64,000 nt of DNA from Candidatus Dojkabacteria bacterium (lineage in GTDB: Bacteria; Patescibacteriota; Dojkabacteria; SC72), in contig DUTP01000006.1 of NCBI GenBank assembly GCA_012842045.1, forward strand, positions 10,979 to 74,978, in the 5' to 3' direction. Both the position numbers and the translations under genes were made by a program. Of this stretch, positions 897-56,703 are shown one piece after another; position 1 is the first letter of the stretch, and each line of letters begins with the position of its first letter. The notes under the pieces are model-generated. The model saw only the letters and a list, made by a program, of their open reading frames with translations, was not told the origin of the DNA and searched no databases.

Positions 897-902
897 ATGC
901 TA

Positions 903-5434: not shown

Positions 5435-5454
5435 TCTCTTACCTTAAGACTTAT

Positions 5455-6891: not shown

Positions 6892-6894
6892 ACT

Positions 6895-37863: not shown

Positions 37864-39639
37864 TTATTCCCAAGTCCATTCTTCTATATTATGAAATCTG
37901 TCATATGCGTGATTTATGCTTTCTAAATCTAGTCCTTCTAGATTATCTTTAGTAATATATTCAAAAACAGGGGTGTATAGGAATATAGCAGGAGCATCTG
38001 CAACTAAATACTTCTGGAATAAATCATATTTCTGTTTCCTAGTATTTCTATTATTACTCTGTCTTCCTTCTTCTAGAAGAATATCGACTCTATCATACTC
38101 ATATCCAGAGAGATTAAGGTCAGGATAATTAATCTTAAGTGAATGCCAGAGATTGTATTGGTCTGGGTCAGTACTTGTCTCAACTTCATATAACAACATC
38201 TCAAAATTCCTAGTGGAAATGGCTTCTTGTGTAATTTGCTCATATGACATTCCTACAGGTTTTATAAAGACTCCTTCTTTTGCATAATAATCTACTAGAA
38301 GACTAACTAGTCTGTTGTTACTATCATTCTCAAAATATGTGATAGAGAAAGAAAAAATATTCCCATCAGGGTCTTCATAATACCCACTATTCTCATTCCT
38401 CTTGTAATGAAGAGAATTTAAAGTTTCCTCAGCCTTTTGTGGATTGTAAGAAAGATAATCAATATCTCTATTATAAAACCAAGAATCTTCAGGTATAGGA
38501 CCATTTAAAATATCTCCACCTATATTGTACTCTTCAATTAAATCATCTTTGTTTAACAGTGTACTTAAAACAACTCTAACCTTCTTATCTTTCAAAGAAT
38601 CTTTTCTTGTATTTAGAAATATAATTCTCTCTCGGTCTGTGATATGTAGCAAGTGTTTTTCATATCCAGAATATTCTTCAGTATATTTACTAGCTTCTCT
38701 GTCCCATGAACCAATTGCATCTAAATCACCAATTCTAAAAGCATTCTCTAAAGCTTTAGAATCAGGATATATCTTAAATACAATCTCCTTTATCTCAGGA
38801 TTATATTTGTCATACTTATTATCTCTAAGAACAACGCTACCTGTATCAATTTTAACTAACTCATACTTTCCACTTCCCATCGGCTTCTTTGAGAATGGAT
38901 CAAATGCAATCTTTGATACACTAACCTCTTCTAACTTTGATTTTGGAATTATTGCAATAGAAACTGCACGGAAGAATAGGGGATTAGCTTCTTTTGTTTT
39001 AAATCGAATGGTTTGTTCATCAATTTTTTCTACTTCAACATTACTAAAAGCTGAACCAACAGAGTCAAAACTTTCTTTCTCTGACAGTGCTATTGCAGTA
39101 TTAAATGTAAAAAGTACATCATCAACTGTTAATCTTGTACCATCATGCCAGTAAGAAGTATCATCTATCACAAAATCATAAACCAAACCTTTTTCTTTTA
39201 TTTCCCAACTCTTAGCAACACCTGGAGAGGGTTCTCCATTCTTATCTATATATATGAAATTCTCAAAGACTAAGCTTCTAATGGATCTCTCTATATAGTT
39301 GTTTGTAACAAATAGAGGGTTTAATGTATTAACACTTCCTACAACACCTTCTACGAATGTGTCTTTTTTAATATGCCTTGAAAATTTCTGTTTTACAGTA
39401 TCAGATTGTAGAAGCATTACAAAAAGGAAAACCAGAAGACCAAAGATTATAATATAGCTAAGAGGTATTAGTTTTTTGTAAAGAGTTTTGAGAAATATTG
39501 GATAATTCCAAAAAATATCTCTGATATCGAATTTCTTCTCAGAGGGAGAGTCTTTTACTTTGAAGTCTATATCTTCCAGAGCATCTTGTATAGAAGATAT
39601 TCCTTTTGAAGATATGTCTGCTTTCTTTTCCTTCTTCAT
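37864..39639 (-). CDS. Extracellular solute-binding protein, ABC family 5 (peptide/nickel type), membrane-anchored
   Basis: N-terminal TM. 591 aa with the length and pattern of family-5 SBPs (OppA/DppA-like). No transporter partner genes adjacent. Confidence 0.6.
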   Translation of the reverse strand: MKKEKKADISSKGISSIQDALEDIDFKVKDSPSEKKFDIRDIFWNYPIFLKTLYKKLIPLSYIIIFGLLVFLFVMLLQSDTVKQKFSRHIKKDTFVEGVVGSVNTLNPLFVTNNYIERSIRSLVFENFIYIDKNGEPSPGVAKSWEIKEKGLVYDFVIDDTSYWHDGTRLTVDDVLFTFNTAIALSEKESFDSVGSAFSNVEVEKIDEQTIRFKTKEANPLFFRAVSIAIIPKSKLEEVSVSKIAFDPFSKKPMGSGKYELVKIDTGSVVLRDNKYDKYNPEIKEIVFKIYPDSKALENAFRIGDLDAIGSWDREASKYTEEYSGYEKHLLHITDRERIIFLNTRKDSLKDKKVRVVLSTLLNKDDLIEEYNIGGDILNGPIPEDSWFYNRDIDYLSYNPQKAEETLNSLHYKRNENSGYYEDPDGNIFSFSITYFENDSNNRLVSLLVDYYAKEGVFIKPVGMSYEQITQEAISTRNFEMLLYEVETSTDPDQYNLWHSLKINYPDLNLSGYEYDRVDILLEEGRQSNNRNTRKQKYDLFQKYLVADAPAIFLYTPVFEYITKDNLEGLDLESINHAYDRFHNIEEWTWE

Positions 39640-42673: not shown

Positions 42674-43411
42674 CTATAGTTCTCCTTTAAGGTATTTAAC
42701 AATACTACCAATTACTAATCCTGTTGTCTCTGTTCTTAATATATTTCCTTTTAACTTAATAAATTCGAAATTTAGTTCTTTAAAAATTTCTAAATCTGAG
42801 ATATCCCATCCTCTCTCTGGACCAATTGCAACTATTACTGGTCTCTCAATATTAGCCTTCTTTAAAATATCTTGTAAATATTTAGCATCATGAACTTCTG
42901 TAGCTAAACAAATTTTTACAGAATCTTTTGGGAAGTTGTAATTAACTAATTCTTTAATTCGTAAGGGTCTCTCAATTATAGTAGGAAATATATTTCTAGA
43001 TTGTTCTGTTGCATCTCTTACTAACTTGTTCCAATATCCAGTATCTTTAATAGCTTTGTTCTTCTTTTTTAGTGAATACTTAGATTCAACAGGTATTATC
43101 TTCTCAATTCCTATCTCTACACTTTTTTCAATGAAGAAGTTAAACTTTGTATCATTACTTAGTGATTGAATAATTGTAATATCAGGGATATGTTCGGATT
43201 CTCTTCCACCTAAATCCTCAATAATTTGTACTTCAACAGAAGCAGGTAGGATATCAGATATTTGTGCAAGGAATCTTCTCTCATATGTCTCTATTTCAAT
43301 GTAGTCTTCTATTTTCAACTTCCCTTCTTCAATGATATTTCTACTATCTGAATCAGAAAGATATGTAATATCTTCAACAGAGAGTTTGTGTTTTACAAAG
43401 AATTTTTGCAT
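42674..43411 (-). CDS. rsmE: 16S rRNA (uracil1498-N3)-methyltransferase RsmE
   Basis: N-terminal PUA-like domain. C-terminal SPOUT domain with VIVAIGPERGWDISDLEIF (GPEGG-type motif). Confidence 0.7.
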   Translation of the reverse strand: MQKFFVKHKLSVEDITYLSDSDSRNIIEEGKLKIEDYIEIETYERRFLAQISDILPASVEVQIIEDLGGRESEHIPDITIIQSLSNDTKFNFFIEKSVEIGIEKIIPVESKYSLKKKNKAIKDTGYWNKLVRDATEQSRNIFPTIIERPLRIKELVNYNFPKDSVKICLATEVHDAKYLQDILKKANIERPVIVAIGPERGWDISDLEIFKELNFEFIKLKGNILRTETTGLVIGSIVKYLKGEL

Positions 43412-43553
43412 GTCTAATTATACCTCACTATCACCTGATGTGGTATTGTAACTTTGTTGGTCAGAACTTGACTTCACTAAGATAATCTAGTTATATATTT
43501 ATATAAACAGTAGTATTACTGTTTGTTCAGATTAAATTAAGTTAGTAGAAAAT

Positions 43554-43835
43554 ATGGAAACAATACCACCACTGTTTTGGATGCTAATAGTTACTCTTCT
43601 AACAGGGTTACTGTCTTTCATTCTCTATCAAATAGGGATGTTCATAAAAGAGAGCCGAAATACGTTGAAAAATGTAGATAGTATGGTAAGTGATGCTAAT
43701 TCTATAGTGTCCACAGTAAAGGGGACAGTTGAGGAGGTCAATGATGCGATAATAAAGCCAATAAGAGGCATTGGTGCTGGTATGTCTGCAATTAGTGGTT
43801 TTCTTTCTGGTTTGAGGGGAGATAGGGAAGAATAG
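43554..43835 (+). CDS. Small membrane-anchored protein (DUF948-like: TM plus helical region)
   Basis: 93 aa. N-terminal TM (LFWMLIVTLLTGLLSFILY), then a helical, Gly/Ala-rich C-terminus. Confidence 0.4.
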   Translation: METIPPLFWMLIVTLLTGLLSFILYQIGMFIKESRNTLKNVDSMVSDANSIVSTVKGTVEEVNDAIIKPIRGIGAGMSAISGFLSGLRGDREE

Positions 43836-43899
43836 AGAATATTCTTTTTTGTGAATAGAGAGATTGTAATATCACCTATTTCTAGGTATCATAGTCTTA

Positions 43900-45915
43900 A
43901 TGAAAGTAGCTTATTTACCTCAGGTAAAAAGAAAGAAGAATATTATCCTAATTATACTTGCGTTAGCACTTCCTCTTTTAGTGTTTGCTGTATATCAGGT
44001 TGTAGAGTGGAGGTCCAGAGCTTCTGGGAATCAGGCGCCAAAGAACGTAGTCATTAGTAGTATTACTCGGAGTCAGTTCGTTATATCATGGACGACAGAT
44101 GGTAAGGCTAACGGTTCTGTAGTTTTACTTGACGATGGTGAGAGAGGTAAAGTGTATGTCGACCAAAGAGGAAGTTCTAAAAGATACTATACTCATCGTG
44201 TAGAACTTTCAAATCTATCTCCAAATACAGTGTACAAGTTTTTAATAAAGTCTGAGAATAAGGAATATGCATCTAGTGAAGGTAAAGAATTAGTTTTTAA
44301 AACTCCAGCTCATACACCTATTCCGACTCCAAAACTTGCGTATGGGAAAATAGACACTACATCAAAAAATGATGTTCTAGTATATATACTTTTGAGTGAT
44401 AAAAGCTCATATCCTGTGTCTACAGTATTATCTAGTACCAATGAATGGACTGTAGATCTCTTTCCTCTTCTAAAGATATTAGGTATGGAGAGAATTGAAG
44501 TTGGAGATGATACAAAATTAACGGTACTTGCTACTGATGGAAGAGGTAGAGGTGGTGTTTTGGAAGGTAGCTTTTCAACACTTTTTCATAGTACTGGAGC
44601 ATTGAAAGAAACATATGTTTTAGGATTAGATGAAGGAAAGGATATATACCCATATATTCCAGCGGAAGCAAAATTGGCAATAGGCTATCCTCCTGCAGAT
44701 GGTACATGTTGGTATTTTGATAGAGGTGTTTGTAAGGAAACAACTAATTGTTCTGTTCCGAAGAGATATTTAACAAAGGAATTGTGTGAGAGTGCTAATC
44801 TAGATGATCCTTATGACCCAGATCCTAGAGATCCTGACCCTTACGATCCGGACCCCAGAGATCCAAATGATCCTTACGATCCAGATTCTAGAGATCCTAA
44901 TGACCCAGATAATCCCGACTATCCTCCTGACTATGAATTTACAAATAGGCAGTATAGGATAATATACAGTCTTAGGTGGACTGATTTAGTACCCACATCA
45001 CAGTCAGAGGGAGGTGTTAGTACTGGAGCAAAGAGTGTAAGGGTGGTGGATATAAGTGACACTGGCTTTACAGTGCTGTGGAGAACAAGAGAGAAAGAAG
45101 AGGGGTATTTGAAATATGGAACTTCTCTTGGAGGATTAAATAATGTTGCATCAGACAGGAGGGATGGTGAACTTGTAAGGGGAGAGCACTATTTGCACAT
45201 AGTTGAAGTGTCTAAGCTTCAACCTGAAACAAAATATTATTTTAACGTTGTATCAGGGAAAGAAACATACACAAATGACGGTGCTGGTTTTACTGCGACA
45301 ACGTTTAAAACGATAGACAAGGCAGGTAATTTCTTCAGTTTAATAGGGGAACTAACTGGTATGCCAGAACATAAAGAAGTGATATTAATCTCTCATATAA
45401 AGGATGGTGATAACAAAGGTACTAAAGGAACAAGTACATCTGTTTCCTCTCTTGTGAATGAGGATGGAAGCTGGGGGATAACAATCTCAAATATGAGGAC
45501 TGAGGATGGAAGTGACTACTTTAAACATACGGTAGGTGATGATTTAATAATCGAACCATATACAACTTTTAGTTCAGCACAAGAAAAGATAAGTATGGAC
45601 GGAATAGATTTGAAAGATATTGTAATAGGCTTAGAAGAAGGTGATTCTCCAAAATCAATAAAGAAAGTATTAGCACCAAGATTGCAAAACTATGGAATAA
45701 CAGGTTCTGCTCAACCTCTTGCTCCTACATCTGGGTCTCCAGAGTCGAGTGGGAATTCTGACACATACTCTGGTGAAACTCCAAACACAGGAGTTTTAGA
45801 TTCTTTCTGGGGTGTTTTGCTTATATCAGTCTCTCTTTTAGGTGGTGGTGTGGTATTATATTTTTCTTTAAGGAAAAAAGATAAAAAGAGTGCTAAAATG
45901 AAAAGCAGTCTTTAA
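43900..45915 (+). CDS. Large surface protein: N-terminal TM anchor, two PAP-N/FN3-like domains, Asp-Pro repeat linker, C-terminal sorting-signal-like tail
   Basis: 671 aa. Domains FVISWTTDGKANGSVVLL...HRVELSNLSPNTVYKFLI and FTVLWRTREKEEGYLKYG...HIVEVSKLQPETKYYFNV. Asp-Pro repeat DPYDPDPRDPDPYDPDPRDPNDPYDPDSRDPNDPDNPDYPPDY. C-terminus ...SGETPNTGVLDSFWGVLLISVSLLGGGVVLYFSLRKKDKKSAKMKSSL. Confidence 0.55.
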   Translation: MKVAYLPQVKRKKNIILIILALALPLLVFAVYQVVEWRSRASGNQAPKNVVISSITRSQFVISWTTDGKANGSVVLLDDGERGKVYVDQRGSSKRYYTHRVELSNLSPNTVYKFLIKSENKEYASSEGKELVFKTPAHTPIPTPKLAYGKIDTTSKNDVLVYILLSDKSSYPVSTVLSSTNEWTVDLFPLLKILGMERIEVGDDTKLTVLATDGRGRGGVLEGSFSTLFHSTGALKETYVLGLDEGKDIYPYIPAEAKLAIGYPPADGTCWYFDRGVCKETTNCSVPKRYLTKELCESANLDDPYDPDPRDPDPYDPDPRDPNDPYDPDSRDPNDPDNPDYPPDYEFTNRQYRIIYSLRWTDLVPTSQSEGGVSTGAKSVRVVDISDTGFTVLWRTREKEEGYLKYGTSLGGLNNVASDRRDGELVRGEHYLHIVEVSKLQPETKYYFNVVSGKETYTNDGAGFTATTFKTIDKAGNFFSLIGELTGMPEHKEVILISHIKDGDNKGTKGTSTSVSSLVNEDGSWGITISNMRTEDGSDYFKHTVGDDLIIEPYTTFSSAQEKISMDGIDLKDIVIGLEEGDSPKSIKKVLAPRLQNYGITGSAQPLAPTSGSPESSGNSDTYSGETPNTGVLDSFWGVLLISVSLLGGGVVLYFSLRKKDKKSAKMKSSL

Positions 45916-45940
45916 TTAATTGAATATAATTAGAGGATAA

Positions 45941-47398
45941 ATGAATAAAGGAAGAAAAAATAAAAAAGCATTGATACTTCTAATAGTCTTGTGCCTTTTT
46001 TCATTTTTTGTTGTAAAAGCTACAAAAAAGATGGAAAGAGATTTAGAGCCGAAAAAGGAAATAACAAGTGAAGTTTTGGAGTGTTCTACATGTGGGGAAT
46101 CTAGTAGTTTAGAAGAAAACTTGGAAGAGGATTTAACAGAAAATATTTTGTTAGTAGATAAAGCGGATACAATTGATATTACAGATATGGTATTGGGTAC
46201 GGATTCGGGTGGGGGGAGAATCTCTTGTAGGGGCTTAGAAAAAAACCCCTCTCTTAAATCCTTAAGGTATGTGTGTTCTACTGAGAATGCAGGTAATGTG
46301 TCGTTTATTCTTCCTCCTGAAATTAGAGATTCTGGGGGAGCAGCTGTACTGACTAGGGGGTTGACAGAATTTAAGATTACGAAAATAACCTATCCTCTCG
46401 CTTTTGGTCTTGGTCAATATAGGTATATAGATAGTAACAAACAGATTAGGAAAAAATCTCCTGATTATAGGTCCAATGGTCAGCAAATAGATACAGCATA
46501 TGTGTCGAAAACATTGGCACCTAATGAAGTAGATGACTTTGAAGAAAATATTTCTGGTACTGTTAAAAAAGCTTTTGAAGTAGAGGCTAAAGTTGATCTT
46601 AAATCAACAGCTAATACAAAGGATGAAAGTGGAAATTCTAGAATGTATATTGTTGAGAATATCGAAGGAGATCCTGAGTGTATGTTTAAAGATCAAAAAT
46701 GCTCAACTATACCTGAATTTGCAGTTTCAGATTACAACATCGGGAAATCGAATCGTATAGCTTACTATGCTGGCTATGACAGTGGGCAAATTCCTGGTGG
46801 TGATGAGATACTAAATGAAATTGATATGGATGATGTTCCTGTAGAGAAGGAGTGTTTAGTTGAAGGAGAAGACTACAAGGCAATAAGTAAAGGTAAAAAA
46901 ATTCTTTGCAACGATACTGCTTTATCTGTTCTTTGGGCTACTTTTAAGGAGTCTTTTTCTTCTAGTGAGATTGAAGCTTGTCGTCCAATGGGTTATTGTG
47001 AAAGAGCAAAAAAGGTTGCGATAAAGATGACTCCTATATTTGGCGAACCAGATGAATGTACAAAAGACTTATGTGCAAATGCATTTCTCTCTCAAACATA
47101 TAGGCAAACGCTTTCTCCTGCAGAATCTATAGAGACGAGTACAGTAAATCCTGATAAACGAAAAAGTATAATGTTTTTTGTTGCTACAGATTGCTCAGTT
47201 TTGGTGGATTTAAAGACTGTAGATGTATATTGTCTTTGGGATGCATCTCCAACACTTTTAAACTATAATCTACAAGCAAAGGACAAGTCTCCTAATCAGG
47301 AAGACTTTCCTTGGAACTTTAATCGTTATTGGGCTAGTGTGTCAGGAGCAATAAACTGGTCTGATGAGAATGGTTATAAAATAGGAAACGAACATTAA
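45941..47398 (+). CDS. Cys-rich membrane-anchored extracellular protein, unknown function
   Basis: 485 aa, N-terminal TM (ALILLIVLCLFSFFVV), about 20 Cys spread over the ectodomain. Confidence 0.5.
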   Translation: MNKGRKNKKALILLIVLCLFSFFVVKATKKMERDLEPKKEITSEVLECSTCGESSSLEENLEEDLTENILLVDKADTIDITDMVLGTDSGGGRISCRGLEKNPSLKSLRYVCSTENAGNVSFILPPEIRDSGGAAVLTRGLTEFKITKITYPLAFGLGQYRYIDSNKQIRKKSPDYRSNGQQIDTAYVSKTLAPNEVDDFEENISGTVKKAFEVEAKVDLKSTANTKDESGNSRMYIVENIEGDPECMFKDQKCSTIPEFAVSDYNIGKSNRIAYYAGYDSGQIPGGDEILNEIDMDDVPVEKECLVEGEDYKAISKGKKILCNDTALSVLWATFKESFSSSEIEACRPMGYCERAKKVAIKMTPIFGEPDECTKDLCANAFLSQTYRQTLSPAESIETSTVNPDKRKSIMFFVATDCSVLVDLKTVDVYCLWDASPTLLNYNLQAKDKSPNQEDFPWNFNRYWASVSGAINWSDENGYKIGNEH

Positions 47399-47414
47399 AT
47401 TAATATCTTTTAAA

Positions 47415-48746
47415 ATGAAAAAAACATTAAACATTCTTCTCTTTATAATTCTTCTCTTTGCTTTTTCTCCATTTGCAATATTTGCTCAAGAAGAAGAGGA
47501 AGCTGAAGAAAGTGAAAAGATAGATAAAAATATAGTATATATGGAATCTGTAGAACTCTCAGACACTCTTAGTGAGAACGAAACAAAAGCAGAAAATGTA
47601 GAGAGAGGTTCCATGAAAACTATAGCAGGGATGTCTCTGAGTCTCTTTATGTCGGCTTGTCCAGATTGTTTCGAAGGAGAACTACCAGAAGAATTAGAAG
47701 GGAGAGGTTTAACAAATATAGTAGATGGGCAAATAGCTAAACTGTTTAATAATCAACCGCGAGTAGATCTAGTTGCTCACCTAGCAGATGAATGGGTGCC
47801 AGGGTACAAGCATGTAGGTGATAGTGTATATGCAGGTGGTTTTGGTGACTTAGAAGAAACAAAGATAGCAGGTCTTTGGACTAAAACTAGAAATATAGCG
47901 TATCTTGGTTATGTGGTAATTATGATTATTGTAGGCTTTATGATAATGTTCAGAAACAAGATAGGAGGACAGGTAATGGTTACAGTTAGTAACTCCATTC
48001 CTAGGATTGTTGTTTCCCTCATTCTGGTTACATTTAGTTTTGGGATAATCGGGTTGATTATAGACTTTGGTGGTGTAGTAAGATCCATTATTGATAGTAT
48101 TTACTTTGGTGGAGAGTCAGGTATAGATGTTCATAATCCTTTCTTTCTAGTAGGAGGGTTTCTTGGGAGAAATGAAGGTACAGCAATAACCAGTGCTTTG
48201 GGAATTGCTGGTATAGTTATTATGATTGTTAAAACCTTCAACCCTCTTGGTCTCTTGTTATCACTTATGGGGCTAGTCGTTCTATGTGTAGTACTTTGGG
48301 GTGCTATAAAACTTTGGATAACACTCCTAAAATCTTACTTTGGAATGCTAATTAATATTGTAACAGCTCCACTTGCGATTCTTTTTGGTTCTTTACCAGG
48401 CAATGAGGCTTCTTTGTTTAATGTATTTAAATCTGCTCTTAGAAATGTTCTTGCATTTCCACTTGCTTATGCCATTGTTAATCTTCCATATGTATTAGAA
48501 GATCAAGGTGTCGTATTGTCTTTTCCTGAAACTTTAGTCCATGCATCGACAGATGATACAACTTTCCTACCTAATCTCTTAATTGAGATAGCCAAAGTAA
48601 TGGCAATATATGCAGCAGCTGCAGCTCCAGAAATATTAAAAGCAATTATCCCTGCTACAGGATCTAAAGCAGGAGAGGAGATTGGCAAAGCATTGAAGGA
48701 GAATGTGTCGAAAACACCGTTAATAGGGGGACTATTTAAGTCTTAG
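47415..48746 (+). CDS. Polytopic membrane protein with a cleavable signal peptide, VirB6/TrbL-like topology. Tentative.
   Basis: Signal peptide MKKTLNILLFIILLFAFSPFAIFAQ. Acidic periplasmic segment of about 150 aa. 5-6 Gly/small-residue-rich TM helices. Short C-terminal tail. Confidence 0.45.
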   Translation: MKKTLNILLFIILLFAFSPFAIFAQEEEEAEESEKIDKNIVYMESVELSDTLSENETKAENVERGSMKTIAGMSLSLFMSACPDCFEGELPEELEGRGLTNIVDGQIAKLFNNQPRVDLVAHLADEWVPGYKHVGDSVYAGGFGDLEETKIAGLWTKTRNIAYLGYVVIMIIVGFMIMFRNKIGGQVMVTVSNSIPRIVVSLILVTFSFGIIGLIIDFGGVVRSIIDSIYFGGESGIDVHNPFFLVGGFLGRNEGTAITSALGIAGIVIMIVKTFNPLGLLLSLMGLVVLCVVLWGAIKLWITLLKSYFGMLINIVTAPLAILFGSLPGNEASLFNVFKSALRNVLAFPLAYAIVNLPYVLEDQGVVLSFPETLVHASTDDTTFLPNLLIEIAKVMAIYAAAAAPEILKAIIPATGSKAGEEIGKALKENVSKTPLIGGLFKS

Positions 48747-48777
48747 TTTAGGTTATAAAAACATTTAGGGAAACAAT

Positions 48778-51411
48778 ATGTCAAAGGATCAGTATCAGGG
48801 GGCATTAGATTCTATCTTCAATTTCATCTTTACAGAATCTAAGAAGCCTGCTAACAAGGTGAAACCGGTAAAAGTTACAGGTGTTGATGGTAGCAATGAA
48901 TTTATGGATGCAGTTGCAGCCGTGTTGGAGAACCCCTTACTTTTTGTTAATGATACTACCAAAAATGCATTTGAAGGTTTAATTAATCCAGACATAGCAA
49001 CTGTGGACCTAGGTCCTAATGAGAAAGTCAAGCTATCTCTGAAAGATGTTGGTAGTGTGTTAAAAGGAGATACCTCTTTTATAGATAAACAGCTTAAGAA
49101 ACTAGAAGCTAATCGTAAAAAAGGAACCCTAGAATGGGCAGGAGAAGAACTCTCGAATATAGTGGCAACAGCATGGGCTAAAGAACATGGTCTTGATATT
49201 ACAACCCGAGATGCCCTCATGAATATGTCTAAATCGGCAGATGCAGGCGGTCTTAGAGACTTAAATACCTCAGCTCTCAGTAAAGCCTTAGCAGAAGAAT
49301 TACTGGCCCGAGGAGTAAATTTCGATAATATGCAAGAAAGTGCTTTCAAGGCAGCCTTTGGAGAGAAAGAAGGAGGTCTCATCTACAGCTCTTTACAGAA
49401 GGTAGTAAAAGAATACAAAGAAGCACAAACCACTGGAAGAAGTACGAAGGAGATTTTAGATTCAATAGATAATAATCATTACACAATCCTCTATCCAGTC
49501 TTTCAGAGTAAATACATGGAAGAAAAGGCGGAGGAGGAAGAAGAGAAAGGAGATGAAGAGAAAGCCAAGTACTATCAACAAGCACAAAGAGCGATAGATA
49601 TATATACACAGGGCTCTCTTAGAGATAGATACCTCCAAAGAATGCAATTTAAACTTCAACAAGAAGAAAGAGAGATACGTGATTTATTAGCATCCGGCAA
49701 ACCAGTAAGCAGAGAGAGAATTAATAATATGAGAAGAGAAGCTAGTCGAATGCGGGCAGAGATCCGTATCTTAAAAGGTCATGATCTGGCTAGGAGATTT
49801 GGTAAATGGGAAGGACATTACAAATCAGTTAAAGGTTTGTATGAACAAACAACAGGAGGTCAACTCCTCCCTGCAATTCTAACAGGAGACTTCTTTGACC
49901 CTAGAAAGAATACAGTATGGGGTCTTCAACCTACTCAAGAGATGGATTTCAAGTATGGTAATTTTCTTGTAGATGATAAAGATGGTTTTATTAAGATTAA
50001 AATAGCTAAAATATATGATGAAGTAGAGGTAGATGAATCAGGCAAGGTTATAGAAGGTAAAGGTGTTAGAGGTCCTCTAGGAAGAAAGGTTAAAACCCTA
50101 AGAGTCCCCTCCAGAAGCCTAAGCAAAGCATACAATCAAATGATGACTGACATTTACTATCTAACTCCAGCAGTTCTTGTTAGAACTTTAGGTACAGGTG
50201 AAAGATTTGCATACAAGGCACATAGGCAAGTAGAAAACTTCTTGGATAAATATAAACATCTGTTTCCTAATCTAGACTTAGAAAAACTCTTCGGTCCTGA
50301 TGGTGAAAACTACCTTGTTACATTCTCCAACCTAGAAGATTTTGCTAAATTAGAAGAGTTCTTTAGGAAAAATAAAAGACTTAGAACACTGGCATATAAC
50401 TTTGGGGTTCTTGATAGGACTAAGAGAAAAATAACAAAATTTTTACGGGAAAAAATAGATCATTGGTTTGGAGCATTAAGAGGTTCTCTAGGTAATTGGT
50501 TACTTAAGAGAATACAGGGTCCAGGGGCTAAAAACCTGATAGAGCAATGGATGAAGAAAGGGGCATTTAAAGTACTGATAGAAGGTATAAAGATGAGTAT
50601 TAAGACAGCTCTTGGTATTACAACTTCTACATGGGGACTTATTGTTAGCTTTGTAATAGATAGGTTTGCTGATATAGCACGTAGCATAGGTGAGAAGGCA
50701 CTAAGTCCCATATTAAAAATTATTTTTACAGTGATAATCTTTACATTGGTGGGAATAATAGGTCTTGGAACCTTGTCTCTCACCTCTTTATATATGAATA
50801 CGAGAAATATGTATTCTCATGTAGCACCAAAGGATGTGATTGTAGGAGATGCTGATTTAGATATAGCATCTTCCTCTCCTTTGCCTTGGGATTGGGATGG
50901 TGACCTTGATGATATACCTGTTCCTGAAGATTGTAATCAAATATTTGAGTTTGCCGCTGGTATCTTAGGTATTTTTGATGTTCCTTTACAATGTACATCA
51001 TATTCGGATAGTACTTGGTGTATAGCTACAAGGAAAGCTATTCAGTGTGATTGTAGTAAGGTGTGTTCTTCGAATCCTCAAGCTGTTTTTTGGCTTGCTA
51101 CACACGAATATATTCATATCTTACAATATAGAGGACCTATAGGTTATGGGCCAAATCCCAAAATATCAGAATGGGGTGCTGACTATTTATCTAAGAATGG
51201 AGGTGCCTATATGTGTCAGTCTGAGTGGGGTTATCTGAGAGCTACAGAAATAGGGGAAGCTATTATGAATGCATATCCTGGTATTTGTACAAGAGCAGAA
51301 CTCAGATTTATAGCACTCCGACAAAAAGCATCTGGACCTTGTTATCGGTTACTTGATAGAGGGATCTCTTATTGTAAACTTGGTGATTGGATTGTTTATG
51401 GAAGTGGTTAA
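48778..51411 (+). CDS. Giant 877-aa protein: soluble N-terminal region with coiled-coil, TM segment(s), C-terminal Cys-rich domain with an HExxH (zincin-like) motif
   Basis: No signal peptide. Coiled-coil and charged region (EEKAEEEEEKGDEEKAKYYQQAQRAID...RMRAEIRILKG). Strong TM (ILKIIFTVIIFTLVGIIGLGTLSL). C-terminal approximately 200 aa carry about 14 Cys and the motif FWLATHEYIHILQY. The 5' portion looks locally GC-richer, and a 195-aa antisense ORF runs at 48795-49382. Confidence 0.55.
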   Translation: MSKDQYQGALDSIFNFIFTESKKPANKVKPVKVTGVDGSNEFMDAVAAVLENPLLFVNDTTKNAFEGLINPDIATVDLGPNEKVKLSLKDVGSVLKGDTSFIDKQLKKLEANRKKGTLEWAGEELSNIVATAWAKEHGLDITTRDALMNMSKSADAGGLRDLNTSALSKALAEELLARGVNFDNMQESAFKAAFGEKEGGLIYSSLQKVVKEYKEAQTTGRSTKEILDSIDNNHYTILYPVFQSKYMEEKAEEEEEKGDEEKAKYYQQAQRAIDIYTQGSLRDRYLQRMQFKLQQEEREIRDLLASGKPVSRERINNMRREASRMRAEIRILKGHDLARRFGKWEGHYKSVKGLYEQTTGGQLLPAILTGDFFDPRKNTVWGLQPTQEMDFKYGNFLVDDKDGFIKIKIAKIYDEVEVDESGKVIEGKGVRGPLGRKVKTLRVPSRSLSKAYNQMMTDIYYLTPAVLVRTLGTGERFAYKAHRQVENFLDKYKHLFPNLDLEKLFGPDGENYLVTFSNLEDFAKLEEFFRKNKRLRTLAYNFGVLDRTKRKITKFLREKIDHWFGALRGSLGNWLLKRIQGPGAKNLIEQWMKKGAFKVLIEGIKMSIKTALGITTSTWGLIVSFVIDRFADIARSIGEKALSPILKIIFTVIIFTLVGIIGLGTLSLTSLYMNTRNMYSHVAPKDVIVGDADLDIASSSPLPWDWDGDLDDIPVPEDCNQIFEFAAGILGIFDVPLQCTSYSDSTWCIATRKAIQCDCSKVCSSNPQAVFWLATHEYIHILQYRGPIGYGPNPKISEWGADYLSKNGGAYMCQSEWGYLRATEIGEAIMNAYPGICTRAELRFIALRQKASGPCYRLLDRGISYCKLGDWIVYGSG

Positions 51412-52405
51412 AAATTTTTTTAAAAAATATAAGAAGTATATTCTAATAGGTTTAGCTGTTGGTTTAACTGTTGGACTGATTGCTTTTTGGGAAGTTAAAT
51501 CTCGAAGTGAAATCGGAGCCGACCCCAAAAATAAAGAGCTTCTCTCTCCTTTTTGGGACTTATTAGATCATCCAACCTTGTCACTACCTTCTGATATTGT
51601 AATATATACGGAAGAAGAGATTCCTGTGTATGACATTCTGCCCTACAAAGGGAATGTTTTAAAGATAATTCAGAAGTTTGATGAAAATATAGAGATAACA
51701 TCTGACACTTCCAACCTTATAGAAACAGAAAACATCTTAGCCTCATATACTGAAAATGTGGGAGTTTTAGAGGTATATTTAAAAACCCATGCTTTCACAT
51801 TTACAGTGAAAAATAACCAGGATGTTTCTAATCTAATTAAAGGTATCTTTGGGTATGAAACAAATCAAGAAAGTATTGTCATGAAAAGGATAGAAGAAAA
51901 TATTATTTTTCAAGGGAGATACTTAGTAGAAAGCTCTTCGAAGGAAGAGTTTGGTTCTATGCAGATAGACTCTTACGCCTACAGAATTGAAACAGAAAAA
52001 GATGGTAGTGTTAAACGAATAGTTATATTGCTATACAATAACAACAGTATTAATACGTATTCAGTTTATCCTCCTGTAAGTATTAGGGAAGGACTTAAAA
52101 AAGGAAATGCCTACTATACAAAACCCCTATATCAGGATTTTGATAAAGAGGATTTTTCGGGGTTGGAATTTCTTAAATATTTTTCCAGAACAAAATCGGT
52201 TTCTGTTAGGAAGACTAGTAAAGTATATATTTTACCAGACTACAATTATTCCTATCTGTACCCAACATATGTTATAGAAGGGGATGCTAAATTAGAAGAC
52301 TTTCTTGGTAATTCTCATATTGGGGAATCGTTAATATATGTATTGGCAATAGATTCGCAATATCTCAAAAAGAGTGTAGAAGAACTCGAGCCTATCTCGA
52401 ATTAA
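51353..52405 (+). CDS. Membrane-anchored protein of unknown function
   Basis: 350 aa. N-terminal TM (ILIGLAVGLTVGLIAFW). It overlaps the upstream gene, so the likely start is the internal MEVVKN Met at about 51398. Confidence 0.45.
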   Translation: MIEGSLIVNLVIGLFMEVVKNFFKKYKKYILIGLAVGLTVGLIAFWEVKSRSEIGADPKNKELLSPFWDLLDHPTLSLPSDIVIYTEEEIPVYDILPYKGNVLKIIQKFDENIEITSDTSNLIETENILASYTENVGVLEVYLKTHAFTFTVKNNQDVSNLIKGIFGYETNQESIVMKRIEENIIFQGRYLVESSSKEEFGSMQIDSYAYRIETEKDGSVKRIVILLYNNNSINTYSVYPPVSIREGLKKGNAYYTKPLYQDFDKEDFSGLEFLKYFSRTKSVSVRKTSKVYILPDYNYSYLYPTYVIEGDAKLEDFLGNSHIGESLIYVLAIDSQYLKKSVEELEPISN

Positions 52406-52536
52406 ACAAAATTTCGGAAAAAGACAGAGAATATACAGTACCAGCATTGGTTTTTCTGAATGCTATAGATCCGAAATACATTGAAACTGAAACAGAAAAG
52501 TAGAAAAATAAAAACATACAGTGTACAATCAAGTAT

Positions 52537-53712
52537 ATGAAATTATTTAAAAGAACAATAATTACTCTCTTACTATTTCTGCTCTCCACAACAGGTGCTT
52601 TCGCTCTTACGTCTTTTTCTGCTACAACTCTTCAATTTGACACGAGCCTAACTGAAGGAGCTGATCAGGTATATACAACTCCGGAGAAAATATATATATC
52701 ACAAATTACAACAAAGTCAGAACAGCTATCTCAAGACCCTGAACTTTGGGTTAAATCCCTCTACTATTACTATATCACTAGACTCTACATTCCTGACTTA
52801 CCATACACATATCTGCTTGATGAGAATGGAATAATATATCAGGGAAAAACAGGGGGACTAGGGGCTAATTTACAGGAAAATGATCTTGATAATGCTGTTT
52901 TAGTGGGGTACTTATCGAACACTCCTACTCTGACGGTAAGAGCAGAAACCTCTTTGATAGAGATGGTTGGTGAGATAGCTCATGCGTGGGGTATCTCAAC
53001 AGTTAAACCTGTAAAAGTAAATATTATAAAGGAAGAAAATAAAATGTCTGGGATAAAGATAACGGATGCTCCTTTTGAATTTACAACAGCTATTAACAAC
53101 CTTTTCAAGGATTGGAAGGGATACACAGAAGAAAACCTTAACTACAAAGCTACGATAGAGGAGGTCATTGCGCCTATGGAGTCTGAAATAGGTAGTAGAG
53201 TGACAGTAAAAGTGAAAATTACAAATGAGAATGACTTTCCATGGTTTACCGATAGAGATCCAATATATGTTTCTACAAAAGATGGAAAGGAAAGTTCCCT
53301 TGCTATAAATCAACTCTGGCCTAGTTTTAGTAAACCAGTAGAGATATCTGATAGAAGTATAAAGCCAAAAGAGACATTTGAAATTGGCTTCGAGATTGAA
53401 GCAAAAGTTCTTACAGGAGAAGTCTTCCAGACCTTTGTTTTACAAAAAGTAGATGGGGAGCCATTTGAAGGCTCAGAGTTTGAGGTGAAGTTCGATGTTG
53501 TGAAAGGTGATAAGACTCTTGTACAGGTAGTATCCCCAGAGTTTGGGTTTGTAAATGTTCGTAAATGTAGATGGGCAAGTTGTGAGATTTTAGATAGCCC
53601 AAAGGAAGGCACCATATTCATTCTCTTGGGTGAAGAAGCAGGTTGGTACAAGATACAATATGCACCTGGAGTAGAAGGGTGGGCAATGCTTAGATATTTT
53701 AAGAAAATATAA
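52537..53712 (+). CDS. Secreted protein with a degenerate PGRP/amidase_2-like domain and a C-terminal SH3b domain
   Basis: Signal peptide MKLFKRTIITLLLFLLSTTGAFA. YTYLLDENGIIYQGKTGGLGANLQENDLDNAVLVGYLSN...PTLTVRAETSLIEMVGEIAHAWGI resembles the amidase_2 core, but the Zn-ligand His residues are not evident. The C-terminus GFVNVRKCRWASCEILDSPKEGTIFILLGEEAGWYKIQ is SH3b-like. Confidence 0.35.
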   Translation: MKLFKRTIITLLLFLLSTTGAFALTSFSATTLQFDTSLTEGADQVYTTPEKIYISQITTKSEQLSQDPELWVKSLYYYYITRLYIPDLPYTYLLDENGIIYQGKTGGLGANLQENDLDNAVLVGYLSNTPTLTVRAETSLIEMVGEIAHAWGISTVKPVKVNIIKEENKMSGIKITDAPFEFTTAINNLFKDWKGYTEENLNYKATIEEVIAPMESEIGSRVTVKVKITNENDFPWFTDRDPIYVSTKDGKESSLAINQLWPSFSKPVEISDRSIKPKETFEIGFEIEAKVLTGEVFQTFVLQKVDGEPFEGSEFEVKFDVVKGDKTLVQVVSPEFGFVNVRKCRWASCEILDSPKEGTIFILLGEEAGWYKIQYAPGVEGWAMLRYFKKI

Positions 53713-53725: not shown

Positions 53726-55732
53726 ATGGTTACCAATGATATTCTTAAGGGGTTAAATCCCCAACAAAAGAAAGCTGTTATGTGTACAGAAGGACCACTT
53801 CTAGTTTTTGCTGGTGCAGGGTCTGGGAAGACCAGAGTGATTACAAACAGAATTGCATATTTAGTTAGTGATAAAAACGTATCACCAACCAATATTCTTG
53901 CTGTTACGTTTACTAAAAAAGCAGCAGGAGAAATGCAGGAAAGAGTTGAAGAAATACTGAAAGATATTGGAATGCTTAAGAAAGGGGTTCCTACAATTGG
54001 GACATTCCATTCTATTGGAGCAATGATATTAAGACAAAATGCTAAAGCAGTTGGTTTAGATAATAACTTCTCTATTTATGACTCAGATGATTCTGATAAT
54101 ATGATAAAAGATTTATTAATAGAAAGAGATATTGATATAAAACAGATAAAACCTAAATCAGTATCATACTTAATTAGTAATGCTAAAAATCAGATGATTT
54201 CCCCTGAAAATTTCTCTAACTACTTCTACGGTTTTATTGAAGATACAGTTGCTGAAATCTATCCTCTCTATCAAAAACAACTTCAAGCTCAAAATGCTGT
54301 AGACTTTGGAGATTTACTCTATCTAACAGTTAAACTTTTACAAGAAAATGAAGATATTAAGGAAAAGTATCAGGATAAATACAAATATCTATTAATAGAT
54401 GAATACCAAGACACAAATGAAGTGCAATACAAATTTGCAAAACTACTCTCTGAAAAACATCAAAACATATGTGTAGTAGGCGATGATGACCAAGGAATAT
54501 ATGCATGGAGGGGTGCAAATATCAAAAATATACAATCATTTGAAGATGATTTTGAAAAGGTAAATGTTGTTAAACTTGAACAAAACTACAGATCTACTAA
54601 GAATGTAATACAAGCTGCAATAAGTGTAATACAACAAAATAATAGTAGGGTGGACAAAGTTCTTTGGACAGACAATAGTGAAGGAGAAAAAATCACAATA
54701 TATCAAGCTATGGATCAAGAAGATGAAGCTGAATATGTTGTAAATAATGCAAAACTTCTCCAACAAAGGGGTGTTCCTTTAAAGAATATGGCTGTACTAT
54801 ACAGAACAAACTATCAATCAAGAGCAATAGAAGAAGCTCTACTTAAATTAGGACTCCCTTACAAATTAGTAGGAGGATTTAGATTCTATGAAAGGAAAGA
54901 AATTAAAGATATCATTAGTTATCTCAGATTCTGCTTTAACCAGAAAGATGAATTAAGTCTAGATAGAATATTGAATACTCCACCAAGAAAGATAGGTCCA
55001 AAAGCTAAGGCAGAGCTATATTCATTCGCGAAAGAAGCAGGTTTAACTTTAGGCGAGTTTATCATAGGTGCATATCTTGTTGATAATAAAGAATTCATAG
55101 AGAAAGTAAACATAGAGGAAGGAAAAACAATAGAGATTGGGGAGATTAAAGAGAAGTGGAGTAAGTATCAATCTGTTATTACTCTGTTTGGTAACCTTTT
55201 CTTCTTTGCGAAAAGTACAAATCTTTTACAATTGATAGATACCATAGTAGAAAGAACTGGATATATACAATGGTTTGATGATGGTACAGAAGAGGCTCTA
55301 ATGAAGAAAGAGAATATAATGGAGTTAAAAAGTGTGGCATCGTCATATTCAAGTAAATATGGAGAGAAAAGTTTAGAGGTATTTCTAAATGAAATTAATC
55401 TGATAGAACAAGAACAGGATAAAAACCAAGATGGAACTGGTAATTATATTAATCTAATGACACTACACTCATCAAAAGGTCTTGAATTTGACTATGTATT
55501 TATGGTTGGAGTTGAAGAAGGTTTATTACCACACTCAAGGTCATTTTTAGAAGAAGATGATTTGGAAGAAGAGAGAAGGTTGTGTTATGTAGGGATTACA
55601 AGAGCAAAACAGAAGTTATTTATCTCATTTGCAGAAAAAAGGATAACTAGAGAAGGATTCTCGTCGCAAATACCGTCAAGATTCTTAGGGGAAATACCAC
55701 AAGATATTTGTGAATATTATAGTTACAAATAA
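53726..55732 (+). CDS. pcrA: ATP-dependent DNA helicase, UvrD/PcrA family
   Basis: LNPQQKKAVMCTEGPLLVFAGAGSGKTRVITNRIAYL (motifs Q and I), DEYQDTN (II), the remaining helicase motifs, and C-terminal GITRAK. Confidence 0.9.
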   Translation: MVTNDILKGLNPQQKKAVMCTEGPLLVFAGAGSGKTRVITNRIAYLVSDKNVSPTNILAVTFTKKAAGEMQERVEEILKDIGMLKKGVPTIGTFHSIGAMILRQNAKAVGLDNNFSIYDSDDSDNMIKDLLIERDIDIKQIKPKSVSYLISNAKNQMISPENFSNYFYGFIEDTVAEIYPLYQKQLQAQNAVDFGDLLYLTVKLLQENEDIKEKYQDKYKYLLIDEYQDTNEVQYKFAKLLSEKHQNICVVGDDDQGIYAWRGANIKNIQSFEDDFEKVNVVKLEQNYRSTKNVIQAAISVIQQNNSRVDKVLWTDNSEGEKITIYQAMDQEDEAEYVVNNAKLLQQRGVPLKNMAVLYRTNYQSRAIEEALLKLGLPYKLVGGFRFYERKEIKDIISYLRFCFNQKDELSLDRILNTPPRKIGPKAKAELYSFAKEAGLTLGEFIIGAYLVDNKEFIEKVNIEEGKTIEIGEIKEKWSKYQSVITLFGNLFFFAKSTNLLQLIDTIVERTGYIQWFDDGTEEALMKKENIMELKSVASSYSSKYGEKSLEVFLNEINLIEQEQDKNQDGTGNYINLMTLHSSKGLEFDYVFMVGVEEGLLPHSRSFLEEDDLEEERRLCYVGITRAKQKLFISFAEKRITREGFSSQIPSRFLGEIPQDICEYYSYK

Positions 55733-56703
55733 CCACATACATATCTGTGGCTAAGTTCTTTTTTGTAAGTATTGACATACTGTTTGTAAACACCTGGCCA
55801 CATCTTTGCAGGATCAGCGCATCCTCTTATTTTTTCTAATGTTCTCTTGATTTGTGCGTGTCCTTCAAAAATATTATCTGTGGGATATTGTTTGTACCAT
55901 AAACATGGATTCCACTGGAAAAGTCCTTTGTGGAAGCCCTTGTTTCTTTCTGCATTACAACCAGATTCTTTTTCCATTGTAAATTTCAGCCATTCCTTTT
56001 CCTCTTCTGTTGCATTAATCTTGTCAACTTCTGATTTCCAATATGGACAATTGAATCCAATCTGAGGAACAGAGTCTGGAGGATGTATACCACCAGAGAG
56101 AGAAATAATCTCTTTTACAGGTTGTTTAATAATCTCTTCACTTACAACTTTTTCAGAAATATATTCTCCATCGAGAAAATATTTTTCAATTGTTTGCACT
56201 TTTCTTCCTGTCTCGCCTTTTTGTGCAATTCTCTTTTCAGTCATACTTGCACATAGGGATTCTCCTTCTGTAACAGTCTCAAATGGGACAGTCACAAAAA
56301 CCTGAGAAATCTCTGTTACATATGTCTGAATTGTAATATAGCTCTCTTTGTATAATCTATCTATCGGAGAATTAGATAGAATTCTATTCTTACTCCCAAG
56401 AGGATATCCGAGCTCTAGAAGAGTTTCTGTAGTACTGATGCCTCTTGTTAAATATGTGACAATATCCGAATTGTAAGAAACAGTCATAACTTTGATCCTA
56501 CCATCAGAGGTATCTTGAATACCAAGAACATCCATAAGAGCTTCTCTGTTTTCTCTCTCTACTTCCGTAAATACATCTCTGTATATATCTCCGAAATGTT
56601 TGGTACTTACAGTATTTGCAAACCAAAACATGATAAGAAACAGCAATAAATAGAATACCTTTTTTCTAGACATAGTAATCAATTCTATCATACAAAAAAA
56701 CAT
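55723..56703 (-). CDS. Secreted G5-domain protein with a C-terminal Rpf-like (lysozyme-fold) transglycosylase domain; DUF348-G5-Rpf architecture
   Basis: N-terminal TM or signal peptide. DUF348-like DGRIKVMTVSYNSDIVTYL. G5-like ...VPFETVTEGESL...KGETGRKVQTIEKYFLDGEYISEKVV. The C-terminus EKESGCNAERNKGFHKGLFQWNPCLW resembles the Rpf motif (CESGGNW...GGLQF..TW) with a catalytic Glu. Confidence 0.45.
   Translation of the reverse strand: MFFCMIELITMSRKKVFYLLLFLIMFWFANTVSTKHFGDIYRDVFTEVERENREALMDVLGIQDTSDGRIKVMTVSYNSDIVTYLTRGISTTETLLELGYPLGSKNRILSNSPIDRLYKESYITIQTYVTEISQVFVTVPFETVTEGESLCASMTEKRIAQKGETGRKVQTIEKYFLDGEYISEKVVSEEIIKQPVKEIISLSGGIHPPDSVPQIGFNCPYWKSEVDKINATEEEKEWLKFTMEKESGCNAERNKGFHKGLFQWNPCLWYKQYPTDNIFEGHAQIKRTLEKIRGCADPAKMWPGVYKQYVNTYKKELSHRYVCGYL

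Follow-up and report, generated by a model that had tools for sequence, protein, structure and literature searches.

Polymorphic toxins, among them CdiA-CT/CdiI, Rhs and LXG, are built of a conserved N-terminal part and variable C-terminal enzymatic domains which are swapped by recombination (PMC3482391). A comparable organisation is found around an 877-aa protein of Candidatus Dojkabacteria bacterium (HHX99715.1, UniRef100_A0A832QEM7 by exact-sequence look-up), whose gene occupies positions 48778-51411 of the forward strand in a 64-kb stretch of DNA that was analysed as a whole and is referred to as the window; the protein and its relatives have been deposited under no name other than 'hypothetical protein'. 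Like the polymorphic toxins, the family of this protein carries alternative M23, CHAP and HExxH domains on one backbone, with the switch occurring within a single 90%-identity cluster, and the C-terminal domain is replaced together with the downstream gene with which it co-varies. Polymorphic toxin systems often feature a conserved junction motif, of which the YSHVAP motif of the family would be the counterpart, and they place the immunity gene directly downstream, the position that is held here by the co-varying gene. Unlike polymorphic toxins, the 877-aa protein is membrane-embedded with a large cytoplasmic part, it has neither a recognised trafficking or secretion domain nor orphan cassettes, and its downstream neighbour is a large protein with distant conservation across the types. 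It is proposed, with a little more confidence than doubt, that the gene encodes a single-pass membrane protein which displays an exchangeable cell-wall peptidase module outside the cell and is accompanied by a cognate, membrane-anchored partner. Residue numbers below refer to the 877-aa protein and nucleotide positions to the window, in which features lie on the forward strand unless a minus strand is given; relatives of the protein are labelled P and the contigs or loci of relatives L.

The main new result is an exchange at the 3' end of the gene, by which the HExxH module entered this genome through replacement of a 1.56-kb cassette, and which an earlier description of the gene from its sequence (the first-pass annotation) had missed. 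Positions 43310-50870 of the window are 98.6% identical to positions 1-7546 of a sister genome (L003), and positions 52430-53286 are 99.1% identical to positions 9113-9969, while blastn finds no detectable similarity between the 1,559 bp enclosed in the window (50871-52429) and the 1,566 bp enclosed in L003 (7547-9112). The left breakpoint lies at about residue 698, 14 residues past HVAP, and the right one in the spacer preceding the gene of an SH3 protein; the exchanged unit is therefore the enzymatic module from residue ~698 onwards together with the whole downstream gene. In L003 the same position is taken by a Peptidase_M23 module and a different downstream gene. Among the 12 near-full-length alleles of the 90%-identity cluster 11 are of the M23 type, and among them the HExxH domain occurs in this genome alone. 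No known relative is more than 37% identical to the HExxH module of the window, and the downstream partner stands alone in its own 90% cluster; the GC content of the cassette (0.346) is unremarkable.

The backbone on which the modules alternate is shared by 14 full-length homologues, which are alike over their first ~680 residues up to an invariant (Y/F)xH(V/I)xP juxtamembrane motif and then diverge. In the 877-aa protein this motif is YSHVAP (residues 679-684, 50812-50829), with which the conserved backbone ends; all 15 sequences have H681 and P684, and similarity between proteins of different type stops shortly past it. The C-termini that follow are Peptidase_M23, CHAP or HExxH domains. Most homologues end in a Cys-containing Peptidase_M23 (PF01551, from precomputed matches), and the M23 C-terminus of one of them (P0007) gives PHROG matches to endolysin and metallo-endopeptidase. 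P0014 ends in CHAP and is collinear with P0045 over ~990 residues, after which the former continues with CHAP and the latter with HExxH. Judged from these alignments, the outer module is interchangeable within the scaffold family. P0014 and P0045 also share a Cys-rich middle domain of ~300 residues (690-960 and 720-990, respectively) between the transmembrane helix and the terminal module, which contains …GIPCEIIMGIHYMEGG… and has no match in Pfam or among PDB sequences; the guess that it might be lysozyme-like, made from the motif, was withdrawn.

Within the backbone the N-terminal stretch (residues 1-60, 48778-48957) stands out by its conservation, with the consensus …SVFDFIFTESKKPPxKxKPVKVTG… and with S12, F16, F18, E20, K23, K27, K29, P30, G35, E51, P53, V57 and N58 invariant in 15 sequences, and may be a cytoplasmic interaction segment. 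Residues 241-345 (49498-49812) form a highly charged helical region with 43% D/E/K/R, in which long helices are predicted (232-256, 260-277, 279-306 and 312-359; predicted local distance difference test, pLDDT, of ~70-87) within an otherwise poor full-length model. The N-terminal 680 residues have no match in Pfam, NCBIfam, PHROGs or PDB sequences, and a profile of the scaffold retrieves only coiled-coil noise from the PDB sequences. Phage tape-measure proteins, for example Pb2 of T5, are likewise long and helical, and towards their C-terminus hydrophobic segments precede a muralytic domain of the M23 or another type. Unlike these, the 877-aa protein has no phage genes nearby but housekeeping and envelope genes, its N-terminal 680 residues belong to no PHROG family and its locus is part of the core, with synteny kept in all lineages examined; a prophage tape-measure protein was rejected on the lack of phage context and of a PHROG match.

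The module found in the window is a Cys-rich, gluzincin-like domain (residues 701-877, 50878-51408). It contains FWLATHEYIHILQY at residues 771-784, including H776, E777 and H780. A word-indexed homologue search with the C-terminal domain alone gave no match. An exhaustive search of 1.84 billion representative proteins with a two-sequence profile found 74 relatives, 45 of them at E <= 1e-10, in all of which the domain is C-terminal, and HExxH is seen in every profile match that covers the motif region. One relative, P0003, ends like the window protein in the HExxH domain (30% identity over 182 residues, E 4e-16). The signature of the family reads HExxHxxQ, 13-20 residues, EWGA(D/E)Y. In an alignment of 46 sequences C757, H776, E777, H780, Q783, E798, W799, G800, Y811, C837 and C855 are invariant and L737, C748, L773 and A801 are conserved to at least 90%. 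HEYIH (51103-51117), followed by the invariant Q783, is the proposed zinc-binding and catalytic motif; its H776, E777 and H780 are invariant in 46/46 sequences, and it lies in helix 67-85 of the model. The EWGA motif (E798-A801, 51169-51180) lies in helix 94-104, the putative 'glutamate helix', from which E798 would provide the third zinc ligand.

An AlphaFold2 model of residues 701-877, based on the 46-sequence alignment, reaches a pLDDT of 90.0 and a predicted template modelling score (pTM) of 0.87. Its elements follow one another as a helix, three short strands, the long HExxH helix, the EWGA helix, a β-hairpin and three helices, a layout which in the model is that of a gluzincin core. In the PDB, Foldseek puts three minigluzincins at the top, abylysin, selecase and jannalysin (E 0.026-0.8, query TM-score 0.31-0.38, probability 0.96-1.0), the best of them having an E of 0.026 and TM-scores of 0.38/0.60; thermolysin-like ProA, M48 peptidases including BepA, Spartan (SprT-type) and PprI take the next ranks, and viral structure models yield only weak SprT-like and M48-like matches. 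Like the domain in question, the minigluzincins abylysin, projannalysin and selecase (PDB 4jiu, 4jix and 4qhf) consist of a small β-sheet, an HExxH helix and a helix with a glutamate ligand, which in the domain in question is a putative one. They differ in that they share 12-17% identity with it, measure ~105-112 residues in the solved chains and are archaeal (Pyrococcus abyssi, Methanocaldococcus jannaschii), whereas the domain described here is ~165-180 residues long and has additional C-terminal helices, the invariant Q three residues past the second His, the EWGA motif and four conserved cysteines (three of them without exception, the fourth in at least 90% of sequences), is extracytoplasmic and is fused to a membrane protein. 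The C-terminal domain is probably a gluzincin-type zinc-metallopeptidase domain, for which the model and the conserved putative ligands suggest zinc binding and catalysis. The first-pass annotation had proposed a zincin from the HExxH motif: the conservation of H776, E777 and H780 in all 46 relatives agrees with this, as does the confident model with gluzincin peptidases as its best, if weak, matches in the PDB.

At the level of families, none of the 46 domains reaches a Pfam threshold. The PF13699 (eCIS_core, formerly DUF4157) domain is a zinc-binding HExxH domain and putative metallopeptidase that is associated with toxins, and a mycobacterial copy adjoins the gene of the wall hydrolase ripC (PMC8213781, PMC12067865); it is either N-terminal in toxins or encoded in adjacent genes of contractile-injection loci (PMC8213781). 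Nine of the 46 domains match PF13699 weakly and below threshold (best E 0.037), and the domain of the window does not match it even at E up to 10. Unlike PF13699, the domain described here is C-terminal in all 74 relatives and extracytoplasmic, and no sheath, tube or baseplate genes were found among 33 of the larger open reading frames (ORFs) of the window, which were scanned with Pfam. A profile of the domain picks out of the PDB sequences only the active-site helix of the M9 clostridial collagenases (ColH, ColG, ColT), where LFRHEYTHYLQ of ColH resembles the family consensus LFRHELxHxxQ; this likeness lacks significance (E 0.09) and extends over no more than 24 residues, and collagenases are absent from the fold matches.

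The domain is not restricted to the scaffold, which is present in 49 of the 75 domain-bearing proteins. P0074 joins it to NlpC/P60 and SLT, P0059 to a GDSL/SGNH hydrolase, and in a further architecture of ~470 residues it follows an N-terminal transmembrane anchor; the NlpC/P60-SLT fusion and the ~470-residue form are those seen in archaeal surroundings. P0074 and P0060 are encoded among archaeal genes (RadA/Rad51, RPA, GatD; L010 5001-8537 and L011 5001-6458) and P0077 stems from a metagenome-assembled genome of a Woesearchaeota archaeon, and the domain is therefore common to bacteria that belong to the candidate phyla radiation (CPR) and DPANN archaea.

The topology of the 877-aa protein follows from a small number of features. 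The segment ILKIIFTVIIFTLVGIIGLGTLSL at residues 645-668 is the sole strong hydrophobic stretch (Kyte-Doolittle up to 2.67, Hessa-scale sum -2.7), and the transmembrane helix to which it belongs (residues 645-672, 50710-50793) has Hessa-scale sums of -1.4 to -4.3 across 15 family members. A weakly hydrophobic segment at residues 608-628 (50599-50661; Kyte-Doolittle 1.29, Hessa-scale sum +4.5) is lacking in two of the 14 homologues and has sums of +1.0 to +6.8 in the remaining 12; it probably associates with the membrane as a helix and does not span it autonomously. The charges flanking the transmembrane helix obey the positive-inside rule. The protein has exactly 10 cysteines, all between positions 719 and 866 and thus C-terminal of the membrane, and at the Cys frequency of the window (0.0078) the probability of finding none among the first 718 residues is ~0.004. 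The protein is accordingly taken to cross the membrane once, from an N-terminus inside the cell to a C-terminus outside, the outer domain probably being stabilised by disulfides. The first-pass annotation had arrived at much the same picture, and the 877-aa ORF, the lack of an N-terminal signal peptide (the N-terminus is hydrophilic), the highly charged segment in the N-terminal part, the strong transmembrane helix ahead of the Cys-rich domain and the placement of a large N-terminal part inside and the Cys-rich domain outside all hold; of its ~14 cysteines in the C-terminal domain the Cys-rich character stands and the count does not. An FtsEX-type coiled-coil hydrolase similar to PcsB, EnvC or CwlO was rejected, the helical part being cytoplasmic and a signal peptide lacking.

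The gene directly downstream (51398-52405, with the start codon of the deposited protein, HHX99716.1) overlaps the stop codon of the 877-aa gene by 14 nt and encodes a 335-aa protein with an N-terminal transmembrane anchor and an ectodomain of ~300 aa. Downstream proteins at the other HExxH loci (L001, L006 and L012) are homologues of this 'type A' protein and of one another, with E-values of 1e-17 to 1e-45. Downstream proteins at M23 loci (L003, L004, L008) make up a second group, type B, with E-values of 1e-45 to 1e-145, and the CHAP locus L002 has an unrelated downstream protein of 163 aa. The type of partner consequently tracks the type of module in 8/8 loci (HExxH 4/4, M23 3/3, CHAP 1). 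Types A and B show marginal similarity to each other (E 6e-6 to 1e-2), mostly in the C-terminal 40-170 residues, and share the N-terminal transmembrane anchor, which puts the bulk of both on the enzyme's side of the membrane. The partner has no match in Pfam, NCBIfam or PHROGs, and its profile finds nothing among PDB sequences. In two loci with an identical M23-type protein (P0008), one contig carries an intact 342-aa partner gene (L008 8555-9583) and the other a gene call of 172 aa (L009 8598-9587), which may reflect either an error of the assembly or a partner gene that has been disrupted.

It is envisaged that ~640 Cys-free, mostly helical scaffold residues would be kept in the cytoplasm, that helix 645-672 would cross the membrane and that a module of ~180 residues would be displayed outside, where the HExxH domain would stand in for the M23 and CHAP wall peptidases and cleave cell-wall peptides. 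Cleavage of wall peptides is the most likely activity by analogy, because the HExxH domain occupies the exact position of the known peptidoglycan peptidases M23 and CHAP; the assignment of a wall role rests on this positional equivalence and on the fusions to NlpC/P60, SLT and GDSL domains. The downstream protein would bind the module as its cognate partner and inhibit or regulate it, and such a role as binding partner, inhibitor or regulator is what the co-variation most likely reflects. The tether between membrane and domain comprises only ~45 residues, which favours action on the wall of the producer itself, where it could serve growth, division or the assembly of surface structures encoded in the same cluster. 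Several points weigh against this proposal. The topology was called from hydropathy scales, the full-length AlphaFold model is poor (pLDDT 50) and the cytoplasmic part of 640 residues has no match in any database. No family with demonstrated muralytic activity matches the HExxH domain, its structural neighbours are proteases of proteins, weakly matched (best E 0.026), and the archaeal HExxH proteins have no partner-like gene adjacent. The sample behind the co-variation is small with 8 loci, and the partner is large for an inhibitor (335 aa), its types A and B being seemingly distantly homologous, which would also fit a structural subunit of a larger apparatus.

The same structural neighbours lend themselves to an explanation in which the substrates are proteins: the domain would process or shed surface proteins, such as the ones encoded upstream, or cut surface proteins of a host, and the partner would be a substrate, a chaperone or a pro-domain-like inhibitor. 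All of the neighbours (minigluzincins, ProA, M48/BepA, Spartan and PprI) are proteases of proteins or peptides, the active-site helix resembles that of M9 collagenases (E 0.09) and no peptidoglycan-hydrolase family matches the domain. This is nonetheless thought unlikely: the domain is positionally equivalent to M23 and CHAP on the same backbone and is fused elsewhere to NlpC/P60, SLT and SGNH, and M23 and CHAP are themselves peptidases of wall peptides, so that a zincin fits the wall role equally well.

Patescibacteria are thought to be broadly host-dependent, and those few strains that are in cultivation need a host organism alongside them (PMC12102498); for Vampirococcus, an attack on the wall of the host by secreted hydrolases has been proposed (PMC8080830). 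Together with the polymorphic effector-immunity signature of the cassette, this literature is the reason for keeping a reading directed at hosts or rivals as the main competitor of the one proposed, albeit a distinctly less probable one. The module would then be a weapon or feeding tool against the wall of a host or competitor, either tethered or released near HVAP, the downstream protein would be the immunity protein that guards the wall of the producer, and the exchange of cassettes would reflect selection in an arms race or for host range. A conserved backbone with variable C-terminal enzymatic domains that ends in a conserved junction motif, the joint replacement of module and next gene between genomes that are 98.6-99.1% identical, and the strict co-variation of downstream gene and module type in 8 loci would all be expected of such a system. 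The novelty of the cassette, with a module at most 37% identical to known relatives and a partner alone in its 90% cluster, points the same way, as do the weak resemblance of 9/46 domains to the toxin-associated PF13699, the host dependence of Patescibacteria (PMC12102498) and the host-wall attack proposed for Vampirococcus (PMC8080830); in DPANN archaea, where the domain is fused to NlpC/P60 and SLT, no immunity protein would be needed and none is encoded adjacent. A tether of ~45 residues, however, would hardly reach past the wall of the producer, no recognised secretion or trafficking domain was found in the N-terminal 680 residues (Pfam, NCBIfam, PHROGs and PDB sequences), and a cytoplasmic scaffold of 640 residues is unlike known toxin delivery modules. 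Each genome has a single copy, with no orphan cassettes of module and partner downstream, and the locus is universally syntenic amid housekeeping genes. The 335-aa partner seems to be distantly conserved between the types, unlike typical immunity proteins which are unrelated, and killing or release is so far only hypothetical.

A broader proposal, put forward tentatively, is that Dojkabacteria, and beyond them CPR bacteria and DPANN archaea, would share a family of wall-acting gluzincins, so far undescribed, that are extracytoplasmic and stabilised by disulfides; in Dojkabacteria it would form part of a polymorphic effector-immunity system of new architecture, with which these ultra-small episymbionts would breach or remodel the walls of hosts or rivals. 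In such a system the modules would be interchangeable warheads on a membrane scaffold, each swapped together with its cognate neutralising protein and tuned to the chemistry of the target wall.

The locus bears on the question of how uncultured, ultra-small CPR bacteria build and remodel their envelopes or attack those of their hosts, most CPR envelope proteins being annotated as 'hypothetical'. The HExxHxxQ…EWGA domain is a family outside the Pfam classification that is common to CPR bacteria and DPANN archaea. The class-wide scaffold links a large cytoplasmic domain to an exchangeable outer enzyme, which suggests that wall cleavage is controlled from inside. The swap between near-identical genomes makes the downstream protein a candidate for a specific regulator or inhibitor and yields matched and mismatched pairs of module and partner, and the module type could mark host range if it is true that the enzymes target host walls. 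The family would consist of modular membrane-anchored wall hydrolases that show polymorphic-cassette behaviour and, in this genome, carry a domain that is unclassified in Pfam.

The 877-aa gene belongs to a tight cluster made up, in this order, of the genes for an FN3 protein, a 485-aa protein, a polytopic protein, the 877-aa protein, its 335-aa membrane-anchored partner and an SH3 protein, with gaps of 16-31 nt up to the 877-aa gene and an overlap of 14 nt between this and the partner gene. The first gene (43900-45915) encodes a 671-aa FN3 surface protein with two FN3-type domains (Pfam fn3 9.5e-12, Pur_ac_phosph_N 8.6e-18), the C-terminus of which, with TPNTG, a hydrophobic stretch and a basic KK-rich tail, appears to resemble a sortase sorting signal. 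It is followed by the 485-aa protein (45941-47398), which has a hydrophobic N-terminus and no Pfam match; a gene of 477-508 aa is found at the same position in L002, L003, L004, L006 and L008. The 443-aa polytopic membrane protein (47415-48746) is encoded by the most conserved gene of the locus, with 48-67% identity across six loci, and has more than 200 homologues, nearly all from Dojkabacteria and the named ones 'hypothetical'. A profile of six orthologues gave no Pfam match (best E 1.4, T4SS_pilin, from one member) and none among PDB sequences, and scans of the 877-aa gene and its neighbours with Pfam, NCBIfam and PHROGs gave nothing for the 877-aa protein, the polytopic protein, the Cys-rich protein or the partner. 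The 391-aa SH3 protein (52537-53712), just outside the cassette, has a C-terminal bacterial SH3 domain (Pfam SH3_3 5.5e-5, below the gathering score) and its gene is syntenic in L001, L004 and L008.

On one side the cluster borders on RsmB and RsmE; its other neighbours are UvrD, a G5 protein, a TPR protein and EF-G. Both flanks (RsmB-RsmE; UvrD, a G5 or G5-sized gene and TPR) recur in L001 and L002, where the orthologues of the 877-aa protein are 38% and 29% identical, the downstream flank alone in L004 (73% identity), L006 and L008, and the genes of the locus in L003. From this recurrent synteny it follows that the locus is part of the core and vertically inherited in Dojkabacteria. A scan for promoters and terminators performed no better than on shuffled sequence.

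The order of the cluster also invites a comparison with conjugation systems. In monoderm bacteria VirB1 combines SLT and CHAP, and VirB1 homologues of Patescibacteria add Peptidase_M23 or LysM; VirB1 homologues are often unlinked from virB4, and the scarcity of VirB6 in Microgenomatia has been attributed to extreme divergence (PMC12102498). Like the hydrolases of monoderm conjugation (PrgK, TraG of pIP501 and VirB1-like proteins), the family of the 877-aa protein bears M23 or CHAP. These hydrolases are membrane-anchored and encoded beside polytopic membrane proteins; to our knowledge they have an N-terminal transmembrane anchor and no cytoplasmic scaffold of 640 residues. Unlike them, the 877-aa gene has no virB4 or virD4 nearby, and a terminal zincin module is not known there. 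The protein might on this basis be the subunit that opens the wall for a larger apparatus spanning the envelope, such as a type IV secretion system (T4SS) of the monoderm type, where it would act as the VirB1-like hydrolase, with the polytopic protein as the VirB6-like and the downstream protein as the VirB8/TcpC-like component, or with an apparatus that assembles the upstream, putatively sortase-anchored protein. The tight succession of a polytopic protein, a hydrolase and an N-terminally anchored ectodomain protein would suit such an apparatus, as would the presence of FN3 and SH3 surface proteins in the cluster, and monoderm T4SS hydrolases are multi-domain, with VirB1 often unlinked from virB4 and VirB6 scarce in Microgenomatia (PMC12102498). 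The idea is improbable all the same. No VirB4, VirD4 or other secretion ATPase was found with Pfam in 33 of the larger ORFs of the window (~12 smaller ones were not scanned), and no T4SS genes were found within 10 kb in L001, L002 and L004. Neither the polytopic protein nor the partner matches a TrbL/VirB6 or TcpC/VirB8 profile of Pfam or any PDB sequence, known VirB1-like proteins lack a large cytoplasmic domain, and a structural subunit is not expected to be swapped between near-identical genomes. A T4SS-like hydrolase role is best described as possible, with nothing in this locus in its support.

The last explanation to be weighed is that of the first-pass annotation, according to which the gene, and above all its 5' part, would be foreign DNA of recent acquisition, signalled by locally atypical composition and an antisense ORF. 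The first 605 nt do have a GC content of 0.40, in the 96.7th percentile of 605-nt windows, so that the 5' part is indeed GC-richer; it is not anomalous, given that eight other regions equal this value, including ones in the DnaJ, RuBisCO, PNPase, EF-G and EF-Tu genes. The excess is located at codon position 1 (0.535) and therefore reflects amino-acid composition. Over the whole gene the GC content amounts to 0.376, where the 47 genes average 0.343 (sd 0.026), and that at third codon positions (GC3) an unremarkable 0.265 against 0.249 (sd 0.034), and the divergence of its codon usage from the rest of the window (0.101) is the lowest among the 47 genes, making it the most typical of all and leaving the claim of atypical composition without foundation. 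The antisense ORF (48795-49382, minus strand) exists, has 195 aa and exceeds the length found in codon-shuffled copies of the gene (P = 0.005). It is nevertheless judged to be spurious, because it is absent from the orthologues and because comparable ORFs of 178-209 aa occur within 5/47 genes of the window: it is present only in the window and in the near-identical L003, and is lacking in L004, L001, L006, L008 and L002, and on this lack of conservation in five orthologous loci a real antisense gene was rejected. Long antisense ORFs are recurrent in this AT-rich genome and not specific to the 877-aa gene, and the one at hand is no sign of foreign origin. The 5' part is 98.6% identical to that of the sister genome L003 and is kept in syntenic loci down to 29% identity; a foreign origin of the 5' part, and its horizontal acquisition, are thereby refuted and deserve next to no credence. 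What stands of the earlier description is thus the ORF, the transmembrane helix, the HExxH motif and the missing signal peptide on the side of observation, and the topology and the zincin on that of interpretation, and what falls is the cysteine count, the atypical composition and the compositionally foreign, horizontally acquired 5' part.

A number of further observations concern the surroundings of the locus. The FN3 protein has a long Asp/Pro-rich linker (DPYDPDPRDP…), and a sortase gene (14007-14801, minus strand; Pfam Sortase 1.6e-23) is located 29 kb from the FN3 gene. The left border of the locus is variable, with a pair of PIN-domain genes between RsmE and the first FN3 gene in L001 (971-1749) and a KilA-N gene in L006 (266-1141), and several loci have extra FN3 or PurAcPhosph_N genes. 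The SH3 protein also contains LPYTYLLDENGIIYQGKTGG, which we take to resemble the core motif of amidase_2/PGRP-type peptidoglycan-binding domains; Pfam reports no amidase_2/PGRP-type domain in this protein. The G5-domain protein (55723-56703, minus strand; Pfam G5 2.5e-10) ends in …GFHKGLFQWNPCLWY…, presumably akin to the motifs of resuscitation-promoting-factor-type transglycosylases, and may be another wall enzyme beside the locus. The four other genes with long antisense ORFs lie at 2639-4411, 17340-18902, 29275-30900 and 37864-39639. Finally, the window holds a gene for the large subunit of RuBisCO (18969-20393; Pfam RuBisCO_large 2.2e-86) in a genome of ~0.75 Mb, which agrees with the taxonomic assignment, since forms of RuBisCO are reported from CPR lineages including WS6/Dojkabacteria (PMC5113843).

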